Shown here: in pieces, positions 4,869 to 63,921 of the stretch
Position numbering within the stretch: position 1 is the first letter of the stretch
How the letters are laid out: every line of letters begins with the position of its first letter
Sequence record: MK562504.1
From: Enterobacteria phage CHB7
Length of the DNA stretch: 64,000 nucleotides
Reading direction: 5' to 3' (one strand)
The notes under the pieces: model-generated
Databases searched by the model: none
Told to the model about the DNA's origin: nothing
What the model saw: only the letters and a program-made list of their open reading frames with translations
Position numbers and translations under genes: made by a program

Positions 4869-5114
4869 ATGTTAAAATTATTGATACCAGCTTTAGCAGT
4901 CCTACTGGTTGGGTGTAACCCTTCTTATGAGAATAAGGATGCTTCTTACAGACTTCCTCCAGAAATGCAAGACTGCAAGATTTATAAGCTTAATGGTGAT
5001 GCCATTAGCAGGGATGTTATTGTAGTTCGCTGCCCAAATTCTCAGACGACAACTTCTTACAAGTATGGGAAGAATAGTCAGTCACACGCCACAGTTTTTG
5101 ATGAGGGATATTGA
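4869..5114 (+). CDS. putative lipoprotein
   Basis: N-terminal MLKLLIPALAVLLVGC: signal peptide with lipobox LVGC. Confidence 0.5.
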   Translation: MLKLLIPALAVLLVGCNPSYENKDASYRLPPEMQDCKIYKLNGDAISRDVIVVRCPNSQTTTSYKYGKNSQSHATVFDEGY

Positions 5115-5322: not shown

Positions 5323-5561
5323 GTAGAGAAGACCAGTTAATTGATATGCAAAATGACAAAAATGAGGCAATATCCATAATCCCAATATTGTGGGGGCATG
5401 ACTGCACATATGGTAACTATCTGTGTGTTTGTGAAGACCGAAACATTGAACCCGTAAGCCGTGATGAGTATCAAAAACACTTAAAGGCTCTTGACAATTA
5501 CTTCACAGATAATAAATGCTCTCAGATTTCAAGTGAGGTCTTGCATGAAGATTTTTATTAA
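5319..5561 (+). CDS. hypothetical protein
   Basis: ATG at 5319 overlapping preceding stop; track ORF begins with GTG at 5313. Confidence 0.45.
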   Translation: MSREDQLIDMQNDKNEAISIIPILWGHDCTYGNYLCVCEDRNIEPVSRDEYQKHLKALDNYFTDNKCSQISSEVLHEDFY

Positions 5562-5642
5562 AGTTATTGATGAAGATTTTGGAGGGTGCTCTTGGCACTC
5601 ATTTTTCACAAAAGGTTGTCTAGCTTGTGAGGCACGTAATAA

Positions 5643-6746
5643 ATGACAATTCTGTACAAACAAAATAAAGATGGTTCTTTCAACGTCTGGTCATGCGTTG
5701 CTGTAGGTGACAAAGTGGTTACCACGTATGGCAAAGAAAATGGCAAGATGATGTTTGAAGAGTACACAGTAGAACCAAAAAACATCGGCAAAAAGAATGA
5801 GCGTAACGCTGAACAGCAAGCTCTCTTTGAAGTTGCTGCTAAATACAAGAAGCAGGTTGACCGTAAAGGCTATGCTTATTCAAAATCTGCTGCACAGGAA
5901 GTTGAGAAGGTTGGTGTACAGCTTGCACATGATGCTGCCAAGGTTAGTCATGCAAAGTATCTGAAGTTCCCTGCTGATGCTCAACCGAAACTTGATGGTG
6001 TTCGTTGCAGAATTTCTCGTCATCAGAGTATTGGTGGGACATTTACAGCTTATTCTCGTGAGAATACTGTTTACAATGTCCCTGAAGAGTTGATTCCAGA
6101 TTTACTCATGATGCTCAAACTCCATAAAGATGTTGATGAGTTTGACGGTGAGATTTATGCTCATGGTTGGGACTTGGAAGATATTGTATCAATGATTAAG
6201 AATGTTGACAATCCAGACCGTCACCTACTTAAATTCTACTGGTATGATATCTGTGATAATTCTAAAACTTGGCCTGAGCGTCGTGAAATAATTGATAACT
6301 CACCAATTGTTGAGCTAGGTGATGCTTGCAGGGTTGTACCTGTTCAAACTATCCGTGTTAACTCTTGGGAAGAGTTTGATAAAGCTCATGATAATTGGGT
6401 TAAGCTGAAGTTTGAAGGGGCAATGTACCGCTCCATTTCAGCAGACTCTTTCTATGAGTGTGGTCACCGTTCATACTTCCTAATTAAGCATAAGAAGATG
6501 CACACGGAAGAATTTAAAGTAACTGGTGTGAAGACTGATAAACGTGGTCATGGTAAGTTTGTTGTAGAGACACTTCCTAACGTCTTTGTTGATGTTTCAT
6601 GGAAAACTACCCATGAGAAGAAACAGTATCTTGCTGAACATCCTGAAGAATTTATCGGGAAACCTTTGACCGTTCAGTTCCAGAAGATGACTCGTAAGGG
6701 TTCTTTGCAGTTCCCTGTTGGTCTCGTTATACGAGATTATGAATAA
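5643..6746 (+). CDS. ATP-dependent DNA ligase
   Basis: Adenylation motif KxDGxR (PKLDGVRCRI); 367 aa. Confidence 0.8.
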   Translation: MTILYKQNKDGSFNVWSCVAVGDKVVTTYGKENGKMMFEEYTVEPKNIGKKNERNAEQQALFEVAAKYKKQVDRKGYAYSKSAAQEVEKVGVQLAHDAAKVSHAKYLKFPADAQPKLDGVRCRISRHQSIGGTFTAYSRENTVYNVPEELIPDLLMMLKLHKDVDEFDGEIYAHGWDLEDIVSMIKNVDNPDRHLLKFYWYDICDNSKTWPERREIIDNSPIVELGDACRVVPVQTIRVNSWEEFDKAHDNWVKLKFEGAMYRSISADSFYECGHRSYFLIKHKKMHTEEFKVTGVKTDKRGHGKFVVETLPNVFVDVSWKTTHEKKQYLAEHPEEFIGKPLTVQFQKMTRKGSLQFPVGLVIRDYE

Positions 6747-45167: not shown

Positions 45168-45632
45168 ATGCAACTCTCTGATAAGGGGCTTGCAGCAATT
45201 AAGTTTTTTGAAGGGCTTCGTCTAGAAGCCTATAGAGACTCTGCTGGAATCCCAACAATCGGGTACGGTACAATCCGTATTGGTGGCAAGCCTGTTACGA
45301 TGGGTATGAAGATTACTGCTTCACAAGCTGAACAGTATCTGCTTGCAGATGTTGAAAGCTATGTTGGGGCGGTAAACAAAGCTATCAAGGTTCCAACCTC
45401 TCAAAATGAGTTTGATGCTCTCGTTGTAGAAACTTACAACATTGGTATCACAGCCATGAGAGACTCAACTTTCATCAAGCGTCATAATGCTGGTAACAAA
45501 GCTGGCTGTGCTGAAGCTATGCAGTGGTGGAACAAGGTAACGGTCAATGGTAAGAAAGAAGTTTCTAAGGGTCTGCAAAACAGACGTCGCTTAGAAGCAA
45601 AAATTTATCTTGACGCTGTTTATCCGAAATAG
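45168..45632 (+). CDS. endolysin, T4-type lysozyme (GH24)
   Basis: KFFEGLRLEAYRDSAGIPTIGYG segment (catalytic E..D..T pattern); strong RBS AGGAGG. Confidence 0.85.
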   Translation: MQLSDKGLAAIKFFEGLRLEAYRDSAGIPTIGYGTIRIGGKPVTMGMKITASQAEQYLLADVESYVGAVNKAIKVPTSQNEFDALVVETYNIGITAMRDSTFIKRHNAGNKAGCAEAMQWWNKVTVNGKKEVSKGLQNRRRLEAKIYLDAVYPK

Positions 45633-57764: not shown

Positions 57765-57805
57765 TTTAGAATCTCCAGTTTAGGAAAGCTCTTTATCTGG
57801 GGCTT

Positions 57806-57835
57806 ATGGTATCAAGCTTTTAAGCCCCTTGTAAA
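57806..57835 (-). promoter_or_regulatory. cassette type B promoter variant (TTTACA-18-TACCAT)
   Basis: Minus-sense TTTACA 57830-57835, TACCAT 57806-57811. Confidence 0.4.
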
Positions 57836-57840
57836 GTACT

Positions 57841-58002
57841 TTATGAAATAATTTTTATAACTTCTTTTAGTGTGATGTTTTCGCCATTTGTCAAGGCTAA
57901 ACATTTGTTACCAGTGCATGACAAGTAACTAAATGAGACTTTACCAGTTTTAGAAAATCCGTCAAGCCCTTTGTAAGTAATGATAGAGTTTTCTTTTATC
58001 AT
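57841..58002 (-). CDS. array gene 14, small hypothetical (53 aa)
   Basis: ATG 58000-58002; stop directly follows GTAAAGTACT word; below track cut-off. Confidence 0.35.
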   Translation of the reverse strand: MIKENSIITYKGLDGFSKTGKVSFSYLSCTGNKCLALTNGENITLKEVIKIIS

Positions 58003-58013
58003 TTGTCAAGCCC

Positions 58014-58220
58014 TTAAACATCATAATAATAAATTGCAGTATGTCTAATATGCTTTCTTGTGTGAATTGTCAAGTAACAATCTGATTTGATTGATGTATT
58101 TACATACGTATCATAATCTTTCTCTGATATACGTTGCCACACATCACAAATTAGCATATAAAAACGACGATGTTTTGTTTCAGTATTATCTACAATCATT
58201 AATTCACGTTGATATAACAT
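58014..58220 (-). CDS. array gene 15, hypothetical
   Basis: 68 aa; first gene after the array leader. Confidence 0.45.
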   Translation of the reverse strand: MLYQRELMIVDNTETKHRRFYMLICDVWQRISEKDYDTYVNTSIKSDCYLTIHTRKHIRHTAIYYYDV

Positions 58221-58418
58221 TTTTGAATCTCCAGTTTAGGAAGTGGGCTTGATTGCCCGTCTGATGCAAATACTAAATAACTTTGTTTTGCAGGTCAAGC
58301 AAATTTTTAAAAATATTTTCAGGAATTGCCAGAGAGGAACGGGCACACGACTACCACAAAACATAGCACAAATCAAGAATTATTTTTCAGTTCTCTACAG
58401 ATTTTTCTCTTGACTTTT

Positions 58419-58454
58419 GGGGAGAGGGGGAGTAAGAGGGGGAGAGGGGCAGGG
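58419..58454 (+). repeat. G-tract (GGGG-N3-GGGGG-N6-GGGGG-N3-GGGG-N2-GGG)
   Basis: Five G-runs within 36 nt in an otherwise AT-rich leader. Confidence 0.6.
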
Positions 58455-58471
58455 ATGGCTCTATCTACCTA

Positions 58472-58647
58472 CCTGCACAATTCTAAAATGATTTTTCTTG
58501 CCCGACACTCGCCGGGACTGCACGTTTTGAAAATGAAAAAACTCTTTGGAGTCCACCTGCACAAATTGAAAATGAATTTTCCCTTTGGAGTTCAAAATTT
58601 TCTCTACAGATTTCTGTCCAGACTTTTACCTGCACAATTCTAAAATA
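58472..58647. repeat. 3 dispersed direct repeats CCTGCACAATTCTAAAAT(G/A)
   Basis: Copies at 58472-58490, 58556-58574, 58629-58647; contain the reverse complement of the cassette word CATTTTAGAAT. Confidence 0.6.
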
Positions 58648-58690
58648 AAAAAGCCCTCCTTACCTGAAAAACTTACCAGATAAGAAAGGC
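58641..58690 (-). terminator. rho-independent terminator (10 bp stem, 18 nt loop)
   Basis: Minus-sense GCCTTTCTTA / TAAGGAGGGC stem followed by TTTTTTATTTT. Confidence 0.55.
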
Positions 58691-58721
58691 TTAGCCTATT
58701 GTGAATATGCTACAGAGTCTC

Positions 58722-59504
58722 TTAGTTCTTTGCAGCTAAGAACTTGATATTAGCAATGCCTACAATTGCTTCAGCATCTTTCTCATTTGCTGCAAGAATG
58801 TACACATCAGGTTCACTTCCAAATGTCACTGCACGTTGCATACTACCTTTCAACGGCGGGGTAACTTGAGCGTTACTTAGAGACATTCTCTCAACCGGAG
58901 GGTTACTCCGATGTACCTTGTTCTTACGATGCCTGAAGAGGGTAACTCCATCTTCGTTGACAACGGCTACACCTGCAAAGTATTGTGGCTCACTGTGATT
59001 ACCCCATGTTGACAGAGTATTAAACATTGCCTCTTCAAACACGTAAAGGTAAACATCAACATCTTTCAGGATGTGATTCATAATCACCACAACAGCTTTC
59101 GGGTCAAGTCCACCAATCCCTGCACCAATCATTGGAAGACCAACTTTCTTCAGTTGATTTACTTTGCAGTACTGGTTAAGACTCAACAAAGCACTCTCAA
59201 GAGCATCGTAACGGGCATCTTTACCAGTCTTCAACTGAGTATACAGGTTAGCAATACGTCCTTGTTTAAGACGTGCTACAGAGAGTTTACCAAGCAGTTT
59301 CTGGCAAGGTTTATGCTCTCTTCCTCCTGCTACACGGTAGACTTCAGCATCGGTTTCATAGGCTTTTGGGTAGCCTTTAGAAATCTTATCAGCAATACCT
59401 GCACCCATCAGGTTCATGCAGTTACAACCGTGACCGATGATATCAAACTTACCTTTTTCAAAGTCTGCGAAGATATCACCTTTGATGACTTTTACAATAC
59501 CCAT
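58722..59504 (-). CDS. macro-domain protein (TARG1/DarG-like ADP-ribosyl hydrolase fold) with C-terminal unknown domain
   Basis: N-terminal KGDIFADF...DIIGHGCNCMNLMGAGIA and later GLPMIGAGIGGLDP match macro-domain signatures; 260 aa. Confidence 0.65.
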   Translation of the reverse strand: MGIVKVIKGDIFADFEKGKFDIIGHGCNCMNLMGAGIADKISKGYPKAYETDAEVYRVAGGREHKPCQKLLGKLSVARLKQGRIANLYTQLKTGKDARYDALESALLSLNQYCKVNQLKKVGLPMIGAGIGGLDPKAVVVIMNHILKDVDVYLYVFEEAMFNTLSTWGNHSEPQYFAGVAVVNEDGVTLFRHRKNKVHRSNPPVERMSLSNAQVTPPLKGSMQRAVTFGSEPDVYILAANEKDAEAIVGIANIKFLAAKN

Positions 59505-59505
59505 C

Positions 59506-59724
59506 TTACCATTTCTCCCATGATTCTTTATCTTTAGAAGGCTTCACACGCTGTCCTTCATGGTCTACCCAGATTCCACCACAACCTTCACAGAGTGTTG
59601 GCATAGCGTAACCAGCTTTGAACTCTTCTTCAGAGATAAGACCTTTTAAGTCTCCTGTGTCACGTCCAAACAGTTCGATGGAACAGTCTTTGCAGAAATC
59701 AGCCATTTTCTTTACCTTTTTCAA
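59506..59724 (-). CDS. zinc-ribbon protein
   Basis: CKDC ... CEGC cysteine pairs. Confidence 0.45.
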   Translation of the reverse strand: MKKVKKMADFCKDCSIELFGRDTGDLKGLISEEEFKAGYAMPTLCEGCGGIWVDHEGQRVKPSKDKESWEKW

Positions 59725-60025
59725 AGAGAACTTTCTCTGTCAACTCGTACAAGTCTACATGCTCTATGCCAGCAATGTCAATACCAAGTTTAGTATAACG
59801 CTCTTTGATATCTTTCTCATTCATCCAGATAAGACACCAATGATTCCTGACAGACTCTTCGAGTTTATCTACACAATCATGAAAGGTTGGTGTGTCACCT
59901 CTTGTACCAACCATTGCCACAACACCATAAAGGAACTCACCGTTACCATGTGTGACTTGAGCTACACCAATATCTTTTTCACTGTCTTGGATGACAGCTA
60001 CAAAGGTTTTACCGTTCAATTCCAT
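59699..60025 (-). CDS. hypothetical protein
   Basis: 108 aa ORF. Confidence 0.45.
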   Translation of the reverse strand: MELNGKTFVAVIQDSEKDIGVAQVTHGNGEFLYGVVAMVGTRGDTPTFHDCVDKLEESVRNHWCLIWMNEKDIKERYTKLGIDIAGIEHVDLYELTEKVLFEKGKENG

Positions 60026-60183
60026 CAGAGATTACCTCTTCAATTTGTTGCAGAACTGATTCTGAAGTCTCTTCCCACATCATCATACTGTCAATATCAC
60101 CACAACAGCTTTCTCCAGCAACGTTGTAACGTGCTTGACCATATTCTTTGATGAGTTCAATCAACTTCTCTTTGTTTGACATG

Positions 60184-60453
60184 CTACTTCCTCGTTTTGA
60201 GAACTGCCATAATTTCTTTGGTATCTTCTAAGAACCATGTGTAGTGATTCTCTTTGATTTCTGGATGAGTGTCAATCTTTAATTTGCAATCTCTTCCAGT
60301 ATCTTTCAACTGCGTTGTGATACCCTTCATAAAGATATGACACATCACATCATCCATAACCATCGGCATAAAGTCAATTCGCATGTAAGTATCTTTTGGT
60401 CTTGGAAGAAGTAAATAACCTTCTGTATAGAACAGTTCTGTCTCTTGACTCAT
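60184..60453 (-). CDS. hypothetical protein
   Basis: 89 aa ORF. Confidence 0.45.
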   Translation of the reverse strand: MSQETELFYTEGYLLLPRPKDTYMRIDFMPMVMDDVMCHIFMKGITTQLKDTGRDCKLKIDTHPEIKENHYTWFLEDTKEIMAVLKTRK

Positions 60454-60719
60454 TGCTGCTTATTCCCTAACAAAATCATATCAATCAAATTATTGGCTTT
60501 CATCGTACATTGATAGTACCCATCACGATAAAATTCAAGGGCTTGTGACAAGTCTGTGCCTGTATTACCCTTGACAACATAGCGTGCTTCTTCTTGAGTG
60601 TACTTATCACTTTCACTTACTTGGGAGTTTTTGAACGTAGAGTTCACTTTGTTCATTGAACACCCTGACATAAGTATCAGTAGCACAAATGTTATAAAAC
60701 TCTGGCTTAGTCTTTTCAT
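60450..60719 (-). CDS. lipoprotein (possible o-spanin)
   Basis: Signal peptide with lipobox LMSGC; AAGAGG RBS; start lies inside the upstream membrane-protein gene in a different frame. Confidence 0.5.
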   Translation of the reverse strand: MKRLSQSFITFVLLILMSGCSMNKVNSTFKNSQVSESDKYTQEEARYVVKGNTGTDLSQALEFYRDGYYQCTMKANNLIDMILLGNKQQ

Positions 60720-60960
60720 ATGTCAATACCTCTTTTGTGTGTTTGTTTTTAGCAAGCACATCTTTCAAATCATTTTTGTAATTGGAGCTAAGATTTGCTA
60801 AACCTTCTTGGTAAGCATCCTTAGCAACGCTTATAAGCTTCTGGTTAGTCAACTCTGTCTGAGTAACTTGGTAATCCTTGTAAGAATAACCTCCCCAGAC
60901 ACCTACACCAATCAGAAAAACAACTATGAAAGCTGCTTGACAGAACTCTTTAAATGTCAT
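60613..60960 (-). CDS. membrane-anchored periplasmic protein (possible i-spanin)
   Basis: N-terminal TM helix AAFIVVFLIGVGVWGG; strong AGGAGA RBS. Confidence 0.5.
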   Translation of the reverse strand: MTFKEFCQAAFIVVFLIGVGVWGGYSYKDYQVTQTELTNQKLISVAKDAYQEGLANLSSNYKNDLKDVLAKNKHTKEVLTYEKTKPEFYNICATDTYVRVFNEQSELYVQKLPSK

Positions 60961-60978
60961 TTGTTAATCTCCTAAAAC

Positions 60979-61001
60979 GAAAAAGGCTCCCGAAGGAGCC
61001 T
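60979..61001 (-). terminator. rho-independent terminator
   Basis: Minus-sense AGGCTCC-TTCG-GGAGCCT followed by TTTTTCGTTTT. Confidence 0.65.
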
Positions 61002-61012
61002 GTATCATAACC

Positions 61013-61477
61013 TTAACCGAGGACTTTAGCAAGGACATTTGCAGCCATCGTTGAAGCTTTTGCAGCAGCAGCTACGCCAGCCTTGATAGTGCTATCCTTA
61101 ATGGCAGATACCGTTGCAGCATCAGTAAAGAGATACGTGGTAGTTTGTGAACCACTTGTAAAGGAAAGCATAAGAGCAGTTTCCAGATTGAAAGAACGGT
61201 ACGGAGCACCGGACTGTACAATTCCTTTAGCACCTAACTCTGAAGCCATACCCATATCATAGATGGTCATCAGGTTTTCTTTATGTGCTGTAGTAGAACC
61301 GACACCTTTAACGTGTTTTGAAACGTTCAGCAGAGCACGATATTCACGGATATCACCATCAGCTTTTACGTTGACAGCACGAAAGATTTTGCCATCAAAG
61401 TTACTTTTAATGATATCACGAACAACCTGTGATTTGTTTGCTGATGCGTCGATAGCTACTGTAATAATGTTTTGCAT
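61013..61477 (-). CDS. hypothetical protein
   Basis: 154 aa ORF. Confidence 0.5.
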   Translation of the reverse strand: MQNIITVAIDASANKSQVVRDIIKSNFDGKIFRAVNVKADGDIREYRALLNVSKHVKGVGSTTAHKENLMTIYDMGMASELGAKGIVQSGAPYRSFNLETALMLSFTSGSQTTTYLFTDAATVSAIKDSTIKAGVAAAAKASTMAANVLAKVLG

Positions 61478-61489
61478 GATTTCTCTCTC

Positions 61490-62185
61490 TTAGTGTTTGA
61501 TAAGCATTGTGTTAATGTCTGGAAGGATTCGTTTAACCTTCTCAACATTCCTTACTGTATCTTCTATAAAGCATACTACCTCATAGTACGGAAGAATGCA
61601 AGACTGAATCATACGAACTTTCAAACTTTCTGCACTGATTCTGTTTGAACCAAAACCACGCATAAAAAGCATGTAGTCAGTCACAATATGTTTGTCAATA
61701 AACAAATGAGTTGGTACACGTTGAGACTCACCACGGGCAGTTAAAACACCAATTGCAGCACTCTTATGAATGCCTGAGATGATGTTAAAGATGTACGTAG
61801 GTTGAGCATCAACTGACTCAATCAAGTTTGTATACTGTGATAAAGTGCCATCTTCCAGATACGTTGAATTTGTTGGCTTATCAAACTTAGTGAGAACACC
61901 ATCAATATCTGTTAAAACCATTGGCTTTTTCATATCAAGGTCTTTTGCAACCAAGATTAAGCTGTCACGTTTAACGGCTACTGACTTACCTGTTTGAAGG
62001 TCTGTACAGAGAACTGTTTCAGCAGGTGAATGAAAATCTTTGAAGTCACACTCAACAGCCCTTGCAGTATCTGCAAAATCCTCTTTCATAAGGTCTGTCC
62101 AGCTTGCAGCACTGATATCTATAGCCAGAGGATTGATATCGTAAGCGTGACAAAATACCTTATCCAATTGTTTTAATTCGCTCAT
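61490..62185 (-). CDS. HAD-family phosphatase-like protein
   Basis: MVLTDIDGVLTKF matches HAD motif I (DxDG); ATG at 62183-62185 preferred over track TTG start. Confidence 0.5.
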   Translation of the reverse strand: MSELKQLDKVFCHAYDINPLAIDISAASWTDLMKEDFADTARAVECDFKDFHSPAETVLCTDLQTGKSVAVKRDSLILVAKDLDMKKPMVLTDIDGVLTKFDKPTNSTYLEDGTLSQYTNLIESVDAQPTYIFNIISGIHKSAAIGVLTARGESQRVPTHLFIDKHIVTDYMLFMRGFGSNRISAESLKVRMIQSCILPYYEVVCFIEDTVRNVEKVKRILPDINTMLIKH

Positions 62186-62711
62186 GTTTAACCTTTTTGA
62201 TGTTTGTTGCAAACTCACATTGAGCAAGCACCTTCATGTTATTGTACACATCTTGAGAGTATTGTCTAGCTTTTGGAATGCGGTATGAGTATCCTGCATT
62301 ATATGAAGCTAAGACACGCTGTAAAGAGTATTTCCCATTAGGATTACCATGAACCTTAGTCCAGAACTGAAGCTCTTTGTGTGTCTCCTTTGCAGCATAA
62401 TCGAAGTCTCTGATAAGTTTCTTCTTAGCTACGTTTGGGCTAACTTTGTTACGCTTTACAACAGTCTTCAAGTGATTCTGGAACAACCCATAATCGTGAG
62501 TCTTTTTATTTTCAAGACGAAGACCTAACTCTGACTCTTGTAAGGCTATAGCGGCTAAGGTTAATCCCCAACCTTTACCCATCTCTTTCTCACCGTAGTG
62601 ATAAGCTTTAAGCATGTTTGTTTTCTGACTGATGGATAATTCTGGACAGTCTGAAGCGACTGCCAAATGTGCTGTTAAGAATAAGCACAAACCTAAAATG
62701 AACTTCTTCAT
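62160..62711 (-). CDS. secreted lytic transglycosylase (SLT-domain) protein
   Basis: Signal peptide; catalytic-type QESELG and later YGLFQ, ASYNAG motifs; strong AGGAGA RBS. Confidence 0.65.
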   Translation of the reverse strand: MKKFILGLCLFLTAHLAVASDCPELSISQKTNMLKAYHYGEKEMGKGWGLTLAAIALQESELGLRLENKKTHDYGLFQNHLKTVVKRNKVSPNVAKKKLIRDFDYAAKETHKELQFWTKVHGNPNGKYSLQRVLASYNAGYSYRIPKARQYSQDVYNNMKVLAQCEFATNIKKVKHERIKTIG

Positions 62712-62770
62712 TGGTTCTCCTGTTTAGTTCAACATGCAAGCAATTATACACTACTCTGCACAAAACACAA

Positions 62771-62797
62771 ATAAAAAAGGCTGCCGAAGCAGCCCTT
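62771..62797 (-). terminator. rho-independent terminator
   Basis: Minus-sense GGGCTGC-TTCG-GCAGCCT followed by TTTTTTATTTG. Confidence 0.7.
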
Positions 62798-62811
62798 TAA
62801 GAATTTACTTA

Positions 62812-63921
62812 TTAGATTTCACGTTTACGTTGAGAAATCAGTTCACCAGCAGTGCCTACAACAACATGCAGTGCTTCAGATTTGCCATCCCACTCTTTGA
62901 CAACCTGACGCTGACCATTCACGATTGCTGCAACTTCATAACGAGAAGCTCGCATTTTCATATCTTGATAGTCAGTTGGTACAGATACAACGTCTCGTGG
63001 ATGTACACGAACTTTCAGGATAGTATCACCAGAGAAGCTACGTACATAATCCCAAGCACCAACATGCAGACCTTGAGAGCAAGTTACTGTACGGTCATTA
63101 TCAACCATCCAGCGTGGCATCTCTACAACGTTACCCAAATCATTAGGAACTTTGCAGGTACGGGAGTCAAACAGCTTACCACCACGAGTTGTAACTTTCT
63201 TCCAACCGATGATATAACCTTCTTCATCAATCTCAACGTCAAGGTGAGATACAAAGCCCCAAAGTTGTTCTACAGAATCTTTGGATGGGTTTTCCATCAG
63301 TTTTTCGAAGAATGCAACCAGACGTTTAAAGCCATCATCACCAACTTTCATCATATCCAGAATACGGTCTACCAGAGTGGAACGCATTTGAACAGCACCG
63401 TAGTACAGGTTATCGCCTTTGATGGTGATTGCACCCTGAGTGAAGTTCTCGATAGACTTACGAATGTTCATCAGTTCGAAAGCTTTCTTGTACTCACCAC
63501 CTACAACAGCCATCACGATTTCTTTGTAGTTTGGATGGGTAGACTCAACGATTTCAGAATCTGCACCGAAAGTCATGATAACAGAATCACCAGTAATCAT
63601 GTACTCAATCTGGTTACCGTTCTGCATTGCTTCGTGCAGTTGGTTAACAGGTTCTTTCTTCACTGCCTCTTTAACAGCCTTGGCAACTGGCTTAGTAGCC
63701 GTTTTCTTAGCAGACTTTGCAATCTGTTTCAGAGTCTGTTTAGCTGGCTTGGAAGTTGCTTTCTTAGCACCTTTCAGGGTTGCTTCGTGACGTTCTACAG
63801 CACGACCAACGGAACGAGTAGAAGTATTATACTTCATTGCAATGGCAGTTTTGGTCAGTTTACCTTCCTGAACCAGTGCATAGATTTCTGCGTCGATTTG
63901 TGCTTTAGTTTTAGTAGTCAT
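62812..63921 (-). CDS. hypothetical protein with N-terminal HTH-like segment and Lys/Ala-rich linker
   Basis: 369 aa; MKYNTSTRSVGRAVERH then KKATSKPAKQ... basic linker. Confidence 0.5.
   Translation of the reverse strand: MTTKTKAQIDAEIYALVQEGKLTKTAIAMKYNTSTRSVGRAVERHEATLKGAKKATSKPAKQTLKQIAKSAKKTATKPVAKAVKEAVKKEPVNQLHEAMQNGNQIEYMITGDSVIMTFGADSEIVESTHPNYKEIVMAVVGGEYKKAFELMNIRKSIENFTQGAITIKGDNLYYGAVQMRSTLVDRILDMMKVGDDGFKRLVAFFEKLMENPSKDSVEQLWGFVSHLDVEIDEEGYIIGWKKVTTRGGKLFDSRTCKVPNDLGNVVEMPRWMVDNDRTVTCSQGLHVGAWDYVRSFSGDTILKVRVHPRDVVSVPTDYQDMKMRASRYEVAAIVNGQRQVVKEWDGKSEALHVVVGTAGELISQRKREI

Follow-up and report, generated by a model that had tools for sequence, protein, structure and literature searches.

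A very probable overlapped two-component spanin of the Felix O1 type in Enterobacteria phage CHB7

The 64,000-nucleotide (nt) stretch of Enterobacteria phage CHB7 analysed here (MK562504.1; the whole of it is hereafter referred to as the window) carries, on its minus strand, two overlapping genes for a membrane-anchored periplasmic protein and a lipoprotein (Table 1), which very probably form the overlapped two-component spanin of a Felix O1-like phage (Ounavirinae, Suspvirus), with a role in lysis like that of the lambda, P2 and T4 systems. A first-pass annotation of the window had tentatively recognised an inner-membrane spanin subunit (i-spanin) and an outer-membrane spanin subunit (o-spanin) in these genes. 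The open reading frames (ORFs) that it listed all exist, and its spanin call is borne out by the match of the i-spanin to PHROG 1152 'Rz-like spanin' (2e-38), by the annotation of relatives and by the Felix01 and Moogle entries in SpaninDB. The feature was already known from GenBank annotation and from a published spanin catalogue, so the discovery value of the present analysis is small.

The 2.9-kb region around the pair (60100-63000) is 97.9% identical at the nt level to Escherichia phage SUSP2 and 96-97.5% identical to phages EcSzw-2, EP1 and mistaenkt (Ounavirinae, genus Suspvirus); with Mooglevirus and Felixounavirus phages, its identity is about 80%. It matched 257 phage records, with at least 80% of the query covered in 240 of them, and i-/o-spanins are annotated in many; the homologues bearing these names in many GenBank records are 80-97% identical to the window proteins. 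The curated records of Moogle and Michonne have the same gene boundaries as the window pair (348 nt + 270 nt), with a ribosome-binding site (RBS) for each gene, and the boundaries annotated in BPS17W1 (Felixounavirus) are also identical, with an o-spanin gene of 270 nt. Kongari et al. (2018; PMC6139136) placed Felix01, FO1a, UAB_Phi87, phiEa104 and phiEa21-4 among the overlapped two-component spanins. The SpaninDB tables (PMC6139136) give Felix01 an i-spanin at 5330-5678 and an o-spanin at 5571-5841, with a 107-nt overlap, the label 'ovl' and an AGGAG Shine-Dalgarno sequence; the numbers for Moogle are identical (348/270/107 nt), and phiEco32 is also catalogued.

Architecture and conservation of the gene pair

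The only strongly hydrophobic stretch of the i-spanin spans residues 6-24 (FCQAAFIVVFLIGVGVWGG; mean Kyte-Doolittle value of 2.01). It is followed by a hydrophilic tail of 91 amino acids (aa) with 25 charged residues and a single Cys, and an AXA-type cleavage motif is absent. We infer an N-in/C-out topology for this protein. An N-terminal hydrophobic segment with a charged tail was found in all the family members examined (7/7), and C92 and the F/N motifs are kept in the alignment with distant homologues. The periplasmic domain of the Felix01 i-spanin was predicted by Jpred to be 66% helix (Kongari et al. 2018, Table S2; PMC6139136).

The o-spanin begins with MKRLSQSFITFVLLILMSG followed by CSM, with a basic n-region, a hydrophobic core and the lipobox LMSGC that the first-pass annotation had picked out, and it fits a PROSITE-type lipoprotein pattern. 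The residue at +2 is Ser, without the Asp of Lol avoidance, and is invariant in the seven family members (7/7). The mature protein contains one further Cys (C71), and C20, S21 and C71 are invariant among distant homologues. Against PHROG, the o-spanin matched PHROG 4180 (unnamed) and, weakly, the spanin family PHROG 456. The family profile matched only lipoprotein signal peptides in PDB, such as that of BamD. The Felix01 o-spanin was assigned 20% helix and 16% strand (Kongari tables, PMC6139136).

The o-spanin gene starts inside the i-spanin gene, in the +1 frame relative to it, and runs past its stop codon. The start of a lipoprotein gene within the gene of a membrane-anchored protein, as first noticed, is thus confirmed as a 107-nt +1 overlap, and a +1 overlap of 101-191 nt was found in every relative whose pair is intact (14/14). 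Dual coding was assessed in eight relatives (77-97% nt identity) from the variability per codon position, with a Fisher test. Third-position variability in the i-spanin frame was 68% outside the overlap and 29% inside (p = 1e-4), and the corresponding values for the o-spanin frame were 74% and 26% (p = 2e-5). Such third-position suppression within the overlap is the expected signature of two frames under simultaneous selection. Outside the overlap, which leaves 60% of the o-spanin ORF, variability by codon position was 25% (first), 17% (second) and 74% (third). In the six frames of the window, lipoprotein-like N-termini occur at only six start sites (mean of 1.6 in shuffled sequences), and among these only that of the o-spanin overlaps the gene of a protein anchored by an N-terminal transmembrane domain (TMD). 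This six-frame lipoprotein scan yielded no second spanin candidate pair in the window.

By tblastn, the full 89-aa lipoprotein frame with its lipobox was recovered from 308 phage records, down to 30% identity, most of the o-spanin homologues being 80-90% identical; a scan of viral contigs with the single i-spanin protein gave two loci only. The pair is kept in Yersinia phage P778, Erwinia phage phiEa21-4, Pectobacterium phage Arno162 and Escherichia phage EP335 (Gordonclarkvirinae), whose i-spanins are 23-29% and o-spanins 31-41% identical to those of the window. These four distant relatives retain the TMD protein, the +1 overlap, the lipobox Cys and the Ser at +2; their i-spanins have exactly one conserved periplasmic Cys, their o-spanins one or more. 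Conservation at this distance extends to both frames and to one periplasmic Cys in each protein. Loss of the lipoprotein frame in relatives had been named in advance as a finding that would speak against the pair; the frame persists where o-spanin identity is as low as 31-41%, and a second subfamily has it too. At least one periplasmic Cys is present in 507 of the 528 spanin systems surveyed by Kongari et al. (PMC6139136), and the residues through which disulfides could form here, C92 of the i-spanin and C71 of the o-spanin, are invariant in distant homologues.

The annotation of the o-spanin is uneven among relatives. In the GenBank records of mistaenkt, Silverhawkium and typing phage 1, and in most metagenomic calls, it is begun at an internal Met17 or Met22 (73, 68 or 65 aa); shortened calls were seen in the fetched loci L001 (1851-2057) and L002 (1843-2040) and in proteins P0026-P0042, and the gene is left out entirely from the SPARTY and ULIM3 records. 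A start at Met17 or Met22 removes the signal peptide and the lipobox. We attribute the shortened calls to the gene-caller bias against overlapping genes described by Kongari et al. (PMC6139136), and the claim that phage vB_Si_DR094 has 'only the i-spanin' (PMC8300805) may be the same annotation artefact. The full-length 89-aa o-spanin coordinates given here are the correct ones, whereas many records and automated calls shorten the protein to 68 or 73 aa. In Citrobacter phage BSwM KMM4 (fetched locus L018, 459-807), the i-spanin homologue is unannotated and frameshifted within about the first 25 codons, with the o-spanin intact, which would be due to a sequencing error or mark a phage that is spanin-defective by nature.

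Table 1. Coordinates of the spanin pair, of its signals and of other features of the window
Feature	Position	Strand	Evidence
i-spanin gene: 115 aa, type II inner-membrane protein (predicted), 91-aa periplasmic domain	60613-60960	-	ORF; PHROG 1152; annotation of relatives; SpaninDB Felix01 homologue
Single N-terminal transmembrane helix (predicted), i-spanin codons 6-24	60889-60945	-	Best 19-aa Kyte-Doolittle window
o-spanin gene: 89-aa precursor, 70-aa mature predicted outer-membrane lipoprotein	60450-60719	-	ORF; PHROG 4180; 270-nt boundaries in relatives
Lipobox L-M-S-G-C, o-spanin residues 16-20, predicted lipidation at Cys20	60660-60674	-	Pattern match, 7/7 family members
Dual-coding overlap, 107 nt: i-spanin C-terminus / o-spanin signal peptide and first 16 mature residues	60613-60719	-	
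i-spanin Shine-Dalgarno AGGAG, 8 nt before ATG	60969-60973	-	Also in SpaninDB Felix01 and Moogle
o-spanin Shine-Dalgarno AAGAGG, inside the i-spanin gene, 9 nt before ATG	60729-60734	-	RBS at the equivalent site in Moogle and Michonne
GC-rich UUCG-tetraloop hairpin with T-run, terminator-like, just upstream of the i-spanin RBS	60984-61001	-	Terminator scan; Michonne annotation
Candidate sigma-70-like promoter next to the hairpin, with TTGCTA and TATGAT 17 nt apart	61004-61032	-	Consensus scan 9/12
Terminator-like hairpin after rIIB	62798-62775	-	
Terminator-like hairpin after the macro-domain gene	58692-58651	-	
Signal-peptide GH23/SLT-fold protein (putative), T4 Vs.1 homologue, neighbour of the spanins	62160-62711	-	
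Soluble T4-type (GH24) endolysin	45168-45632	+	PF00959 Phage_lysozyme, 133.7 bits; PHROG 7 endolysin, 6e-57
Tk.4-like macro-domain protein gene	58722-59504	-	

Lysis genes, the exported SLT protein and rival readings

Several points weigh against the spanin assignment. We infer the function from homology to spanins that were themselves assigned bioinformatically and from architecture, and no experiments on the Felix O1-type spanin family were found in the searchable literature. A PDB sequence search with both spanins gave no relative of solved structure, and outside the TMD and the lipobox neither BLASTP nor hhalign related the pair to the tested T4 spanins. The AlphaFold2 (AF2) model of the i-spanin is mostly helical (residues 39-59, 65-80 and 85-111), with a predicted local distance difference test score (pLDDT) of only 53, which is too low for a fold search. 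In the Felix01 i-spanin, Pepcoil predicted no coiled coil, whereas one was predicted in that of Moogle (Table S3, PMC6139136). A terminator-like hairpin precedes the pair, the 70 residues of the mature o-spanin include no Pro, and in the window the pair stands beside neither a holin nor the endolysin, the latter being 15 kb away on the opposite strand.

The shortage of proline was rightly observed in the first-pass annotation, which took it as a ground for doubt. The mature domain of Rz1-type o-spanins is short and unstructured, rich in proline and with a poly-proline stretch at its centre, and the o-spanin of the window does not belong to this type because its mature part is devoid of Pro (its distant relatives have 3-4 Pro each). 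This does not affect its membership in the broader spanin class. Structured o-spanins that are not Rz1-like, such as T4 PseT.2, have been described by Kongari et al. (PMC6139136), and the absence of proline is therefore not disqualifying. The same authors reported more than 120 i-spanins without a predicted coiled coil and proposed differing modes of action (PMC6139136). A proline-free o-spanin, together with a Felix O1 i-spanin for which no coiled coil is predicted, would make this family a reasonable test case for whether spanins unlike Rz/Rz1 share their mode of membrane fusion.

The T4-type lysozyme was found where it had been placed at first reading, 15 kb from the pair. This distance can be explained by the scattering of lysis genes in the Felix O1-like group, as in T4: the Moogle announcement (PMC4319497) describes the endolysin, the two spanins and the putative holin of Felix O1-like phages as scattered over the genome without forming a cassette, the lysis genes are scattered in another Ounavirinae phage too (PMC7925395), and linkage of spanins to other lysis genes is not obligatory, as T4 illustrates (Kongari et al., PMC6139136). 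In P778 and Arno162, the gene just upstream of the spanin pair encodes an endolysin homologue, an order typical of classical lysis cassettes, and that of P778 is 54% identical to the endolysin of the window (E = 1e-57). A PHROG scan of seven of the TMD-bearing ORFs of the window assigned none as a holin, five falling into families of unknown function and two remaining unmatched.

By analogy with lambda Rz/Rz1, P2 LysB/LysC and T4 PseT.3/PseT.2, the i-spanin and the o-spanin lipoprotein would associate via their C-terminal periplasmic parts, and disulfide-linked complexes would span the periplasm, threaded through the murein meshwork. The endolysin would act before the spanins, the holin letting out the soluble GH24 enzyme (45168-45632) to degrade the murein. 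Once the murein is gone, the spanin complexes would collapse and fuse the inner and outer membranes, thereby removing the last barrier to phage release.

The first-pass annotation also connected the pair with a secreted SLT-domain protein, in what it called a second lysis locus. The SLT-domain ORF is confirmed 1.2 kb upstream of the pair, and its N-terminus (MKK, a hydrophobic stretch and AVA followed by SD) is signal-like, as in all members of the 14-sequence family alignment. Its score for the Pfam SLT family (PF01464), 20.2 bits, is below the gathering threshold of 21.3, whereas the homologues P0016 and P0017 and T4 Vs.1 pass this cut-off. The GH23 motif set consists of a catalytic Glu-Ser, a GLMQ-like motif and an AYNAG-like motif. 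The 14 homologues all share E59-S60 and S136-Y137-N138-x-G140 without change, and conservation of G75 and F77 in the GLFQ motif comes close to this (at least 90%). Searches of PDB with the AF2 model (pLDDT of 83) by Foldseek returned g-type lysozyme, a GH23 chitinase and lytic transglycosylases (Slt70, MltD, MltE, MltF and phiKZ gp144) as all of the top ~39 matches, with modest scores (TM-score of ~0.5; E values of 1e-2 or weaker, none of them at or below 0.001). The predicted structure and the alignment concur in a putative enzyme with GH23-type motifs on a goose-lysozyme-type fold.

T4 Vs.1 is 30% identical to this protein over 174 residues (E = 3e-15), and both have the E-S and YN.G motifs behind a signal-like N-terminus, whereas their gene neighbours differ, being rIIB and the polynucleotide kinase gene here and regB and vs in T4. 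SLT/Vs.1 homologues were identified by tblastn in about 2,100 phage records, mostly of T4-like and Vi1-like phages, but also of Felix O1-like phages and of some Vibrio and Aeromonas phages. Several records name the protein 'endoribonuclease' or 'RegB', a label evidently copied from the T4 neighbour regB and propagated as an annotation error. A genome comparison from 2006 (PMC1524935) pointed to the borderline SLT match of vs.1 and conjectured a part in lysis, and we found nothing in the literature on T4 vs.1 function later than that remark.

It is unlikely that the exported Vs.1-like GH23 enzyme, which T4-like, Vi1-like and Felix O1-like virulent myoviruses have in common, acts as a Sec-delivered, holin-independent murein-remodelling factor that conditions the envelope for lysis, and that the neighbourhood of SLT, kinase and spanin genes conserved among Felix O1-like phages is a functional second lysis module and not a coincidence; if this were true, the enzyme could loosen the meshwork round the spanin complexes or tune the timing of lysis. 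We consider it quite unlikely that the pair and the SLT/Vs.1-like enzyme form a single module, in the sense of a second lysis cassette with a Sec-exported murein-cutting enzyme independent of the holin. The protein is a credible exported GH23 enzyme, given its signal-like N-terminus, its invariant E-S and YNAG motifs and its GH23 fold; its gene is on the same strand as the pair, in an order kept in Felixounavirus, Mooglevirus and Suspvirus, and an older genome comparison proposed 'some role in cell lysis' for T4 vs.1 solely on the strength of its SLT match (PMC1524935). However, the polynucleotide kinase gene, a 154-aa gene and a terminator-like hairpin (61001-60984) part the SLT gene from the spanins, so that the cassette is not contiguous, and the Vs.1 family occurs mostly in T4-like and Vi1-like phages, with no spanin gene at the T4 vs.1 locus that we fetched; the T4 spanins are elsewhere, beside pseT. 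The fetched P778 locus has no SLT homologue, and the ORF at the matching upstream position is not one. Moreover, T4 gene e mutants fail to lyse although vs.1 is intact, which indicates that a Vs.1-type enzyme is insufficient as an endolysin. Nor are the ORFs that precede the pair in P778 and Arno162 homologues of the SLT protein and of the kinase (13-14% identity, no BLASTP match). We found no evidence that the SLT protein belongs to the spanin locus. What stands of the proposed second lysis locus is the separation of the pair from the endolysin, the lysis genes being scattered (PMC4319497), whereas the tie to the SLT protein is unsupported.

It is very improbable that the membrane protein and the lipoprotein serve a non-lysis function in the envelope, as would a superinfection-exclusion or receptor-masking lipoprotein (T5 Llp, TP-J34 Ltp) with a partner. 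The o-spanin sequence alone weakly matched 4eqq in PDB (E = 0.0077), a 'putative host cell surface-exposed lipoprotein', but this match is lost with the family profile, under which lipoprotein signal peptides alone remain. The pair stands among early-type genes (rIIA/B, polynucleotide kinase, macro domain) rather than late genes, but so do the tested T4 spanins, beside pseT. The strict pairing, the +1 overlap and the single conserved Cys per protein constitute a spanin signature, two relatives (P778 and Arno162) have the endolysin immediately upstream of the pair, and the window contains no alternative spanin candidate pair. The notion that the 89-aa lipoprotein ORF is a chance frame over the end of a genuine membrane-protein gene, which the frequent starts at Met17/Met22 (73 or 68 aa) or omission of the gene in GenBank and metagenomic calls might favour, has a negligible probability and is already refuted by conservation, since the non-overlapping 60% of the ORF evolves like a normal coding region, the full frame with its lipobox extends over the 308 records, the ORF has its own Shine-Dalgarno sequence, and the shortened calls match the known gene-caller bias (Kongari et al., PMC6139136).

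Expression signals and neighbouring genes

All the genes at 58.7-64 kb are on the minus strand, and in the segment 58722-63921 counterparts of T4 early genes form a mosaic that includes rIIB (with rIIA beyond), the vs.1-like SLT gene, a pseT-like polynucleotide kinase gene and the gene for a Tk.4-like macro-domain protein. The spanin pair lies two genes downstream of the kinase gene. The kinase gene probably starts with the ATG at 62185 (696 nt, as in relatives) and would then share its first 26 nt (62160-62185) with the end of the SLT gene. Between the kinase gene and the hairpin that precedes the pair, 61013-61477 (minus strand) encodes a conserved 154-aa protein (PHROG 2267), for which no named family (Pfam, NCBIfam or other) was matched; its place directly upstream of the pair is taken by the endolysin gene in P778 and Arno162. 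The o-spanin stop codon overlaps the next start codon (ATGA, 60450-60453, minus strand), which suggests that the o-spanin gene and the downstream gene, for an 89-aa protein (PHROG 4391), are translationally coupled.

The hairpin before the i-spanin RBS recurs at this position in Felix-like phages, phiEa21-4, EP335 and P778, each with a different gene upstream, and is absent from Arno162 (positions in the fetched loci of relatives: L007, ~2246-2265; L008, ~2225-2245; L006, ~2240-2262). Its stems differ (GGCTCC, GGACTC, GCCACC and GGCTGCC), with compensatory changes in four of the seven pairs. Structurally conserved in four diverged lineages, the hairpin could conceivably, though with low probability, set the dosage or timing of the spanins. 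In the -10 element of the promoter candidate, TA..AT is kept in Felix-like relatives. Sigma-70-like -35/-10 elements abut the hairpin in Felix-like genomes, so that its role could be to terminate or attenuate transcription or to stabilise the 5' end of the spanin transcript. The three terminator-like hairpins (Table 1) delimit two apparent units, one comprising the SLT, kinase and 154-aa genes and the other the i-spanin, the o-spanin and five more genes.

Downstream of the macro-domain gene, about 500 nt (58221-58721) contain no minus-strand ORF of at least 60 aa, although the surrounding minus-strand array is tightly packed, and this gap closes with the long terminator-like hairpin at 58692-58651. 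A plus-strand ORF of 309 nt is annotated in the equivalent region of the mistaenkt record, with an unconvincing translation. An Rfam scan of 57800-63000 gave only sub-threshold, terminator-driven matches, and an NCBIfam search gave no useful match. Elsewhere in the window, 4869-5114 (plus strand) encodes an unrelated phage lipoprotein of 81 aa (PHROG 902) that begins with MLKLLIPALAVLLVG followed by CNPS. It was rejected as a spanin or u-spanin, having neither a TMD-protein partner nor a C-terminal TMD, and may be of the superinfection-exclusion type.

Comparison with known spanin systems

The likeness of the pair to lambda Rz/Rz1 lies in its plan: a type II inner-membrane subunit and an outer-membrane lipoprotein, the +1 frame of the o-spanin, periplasmic Cys in both proteins and the presumed fusion of the membranes after murein degradation. 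The weak PHROG matches found here are only to other spanin families. In lambda, Rz1 is embedded, 40 aa long, proline-rich and unstructured, whereas the o-spanin described here is overlapped and has 70 mature residues and no Pro. The P2 LysB/LysC pair, a tested overlapped spanin, has the same layout, its o-spanin gene likewise opening in the +1 frame within the i-spanin gene and continuing beyond the i-spanin stop codon. The P2 pair is located inside a contiguous lysis cassette, unlike the pair of the window, 15 kb from its endolysin.

The T4 spanins PseT.3/PseT.2 (117/99 aa) are similar in size to those of the window (115/89 aa), and in both phages the spanin genes are far from the holin and endolysin genes, among early-type genes near a polynucleotide kinase gene (pseT); PseT.2 and the o-spanin described here are both not Rz1-like. 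The shared kinase neighbourhood prompted us to consider homology between the two systems, which was rejected, as BLASTP produced no alignment and hhalign gave a probability of ~2% that involved only the TMD and the lipobox. The T4 genes, which have been tested by lambda Rz/Rz1 complementation, are separated, whereas those of the window overlap; the two subunits carry 0+2 Cys in T4 but 1+1 in the window, and the families are PHROGs 739/812 in T4 and 1152/4180 here.

The closest known system is the Felix O1 pair, p014 and the adjacent o-spanin, catalogued in SpaninDB together with those of FO1a, UAB_Phi87, Moogle, Mushroom and FSL_SP-010, which belongs to the same family, with proteins of 115 and 89 aa, a 107-nt overlap and an AGGAG Shine-Dalgarno sequence. 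The homologues of BPS17W1 and the SpaninDB Felix01 i-spanin align without gaps with the window proteins. The window pair differs from that of Felix O1 by point substitutions only and would be its Suspvirus (SUSP2-like) version, with nothing functionally distinct.

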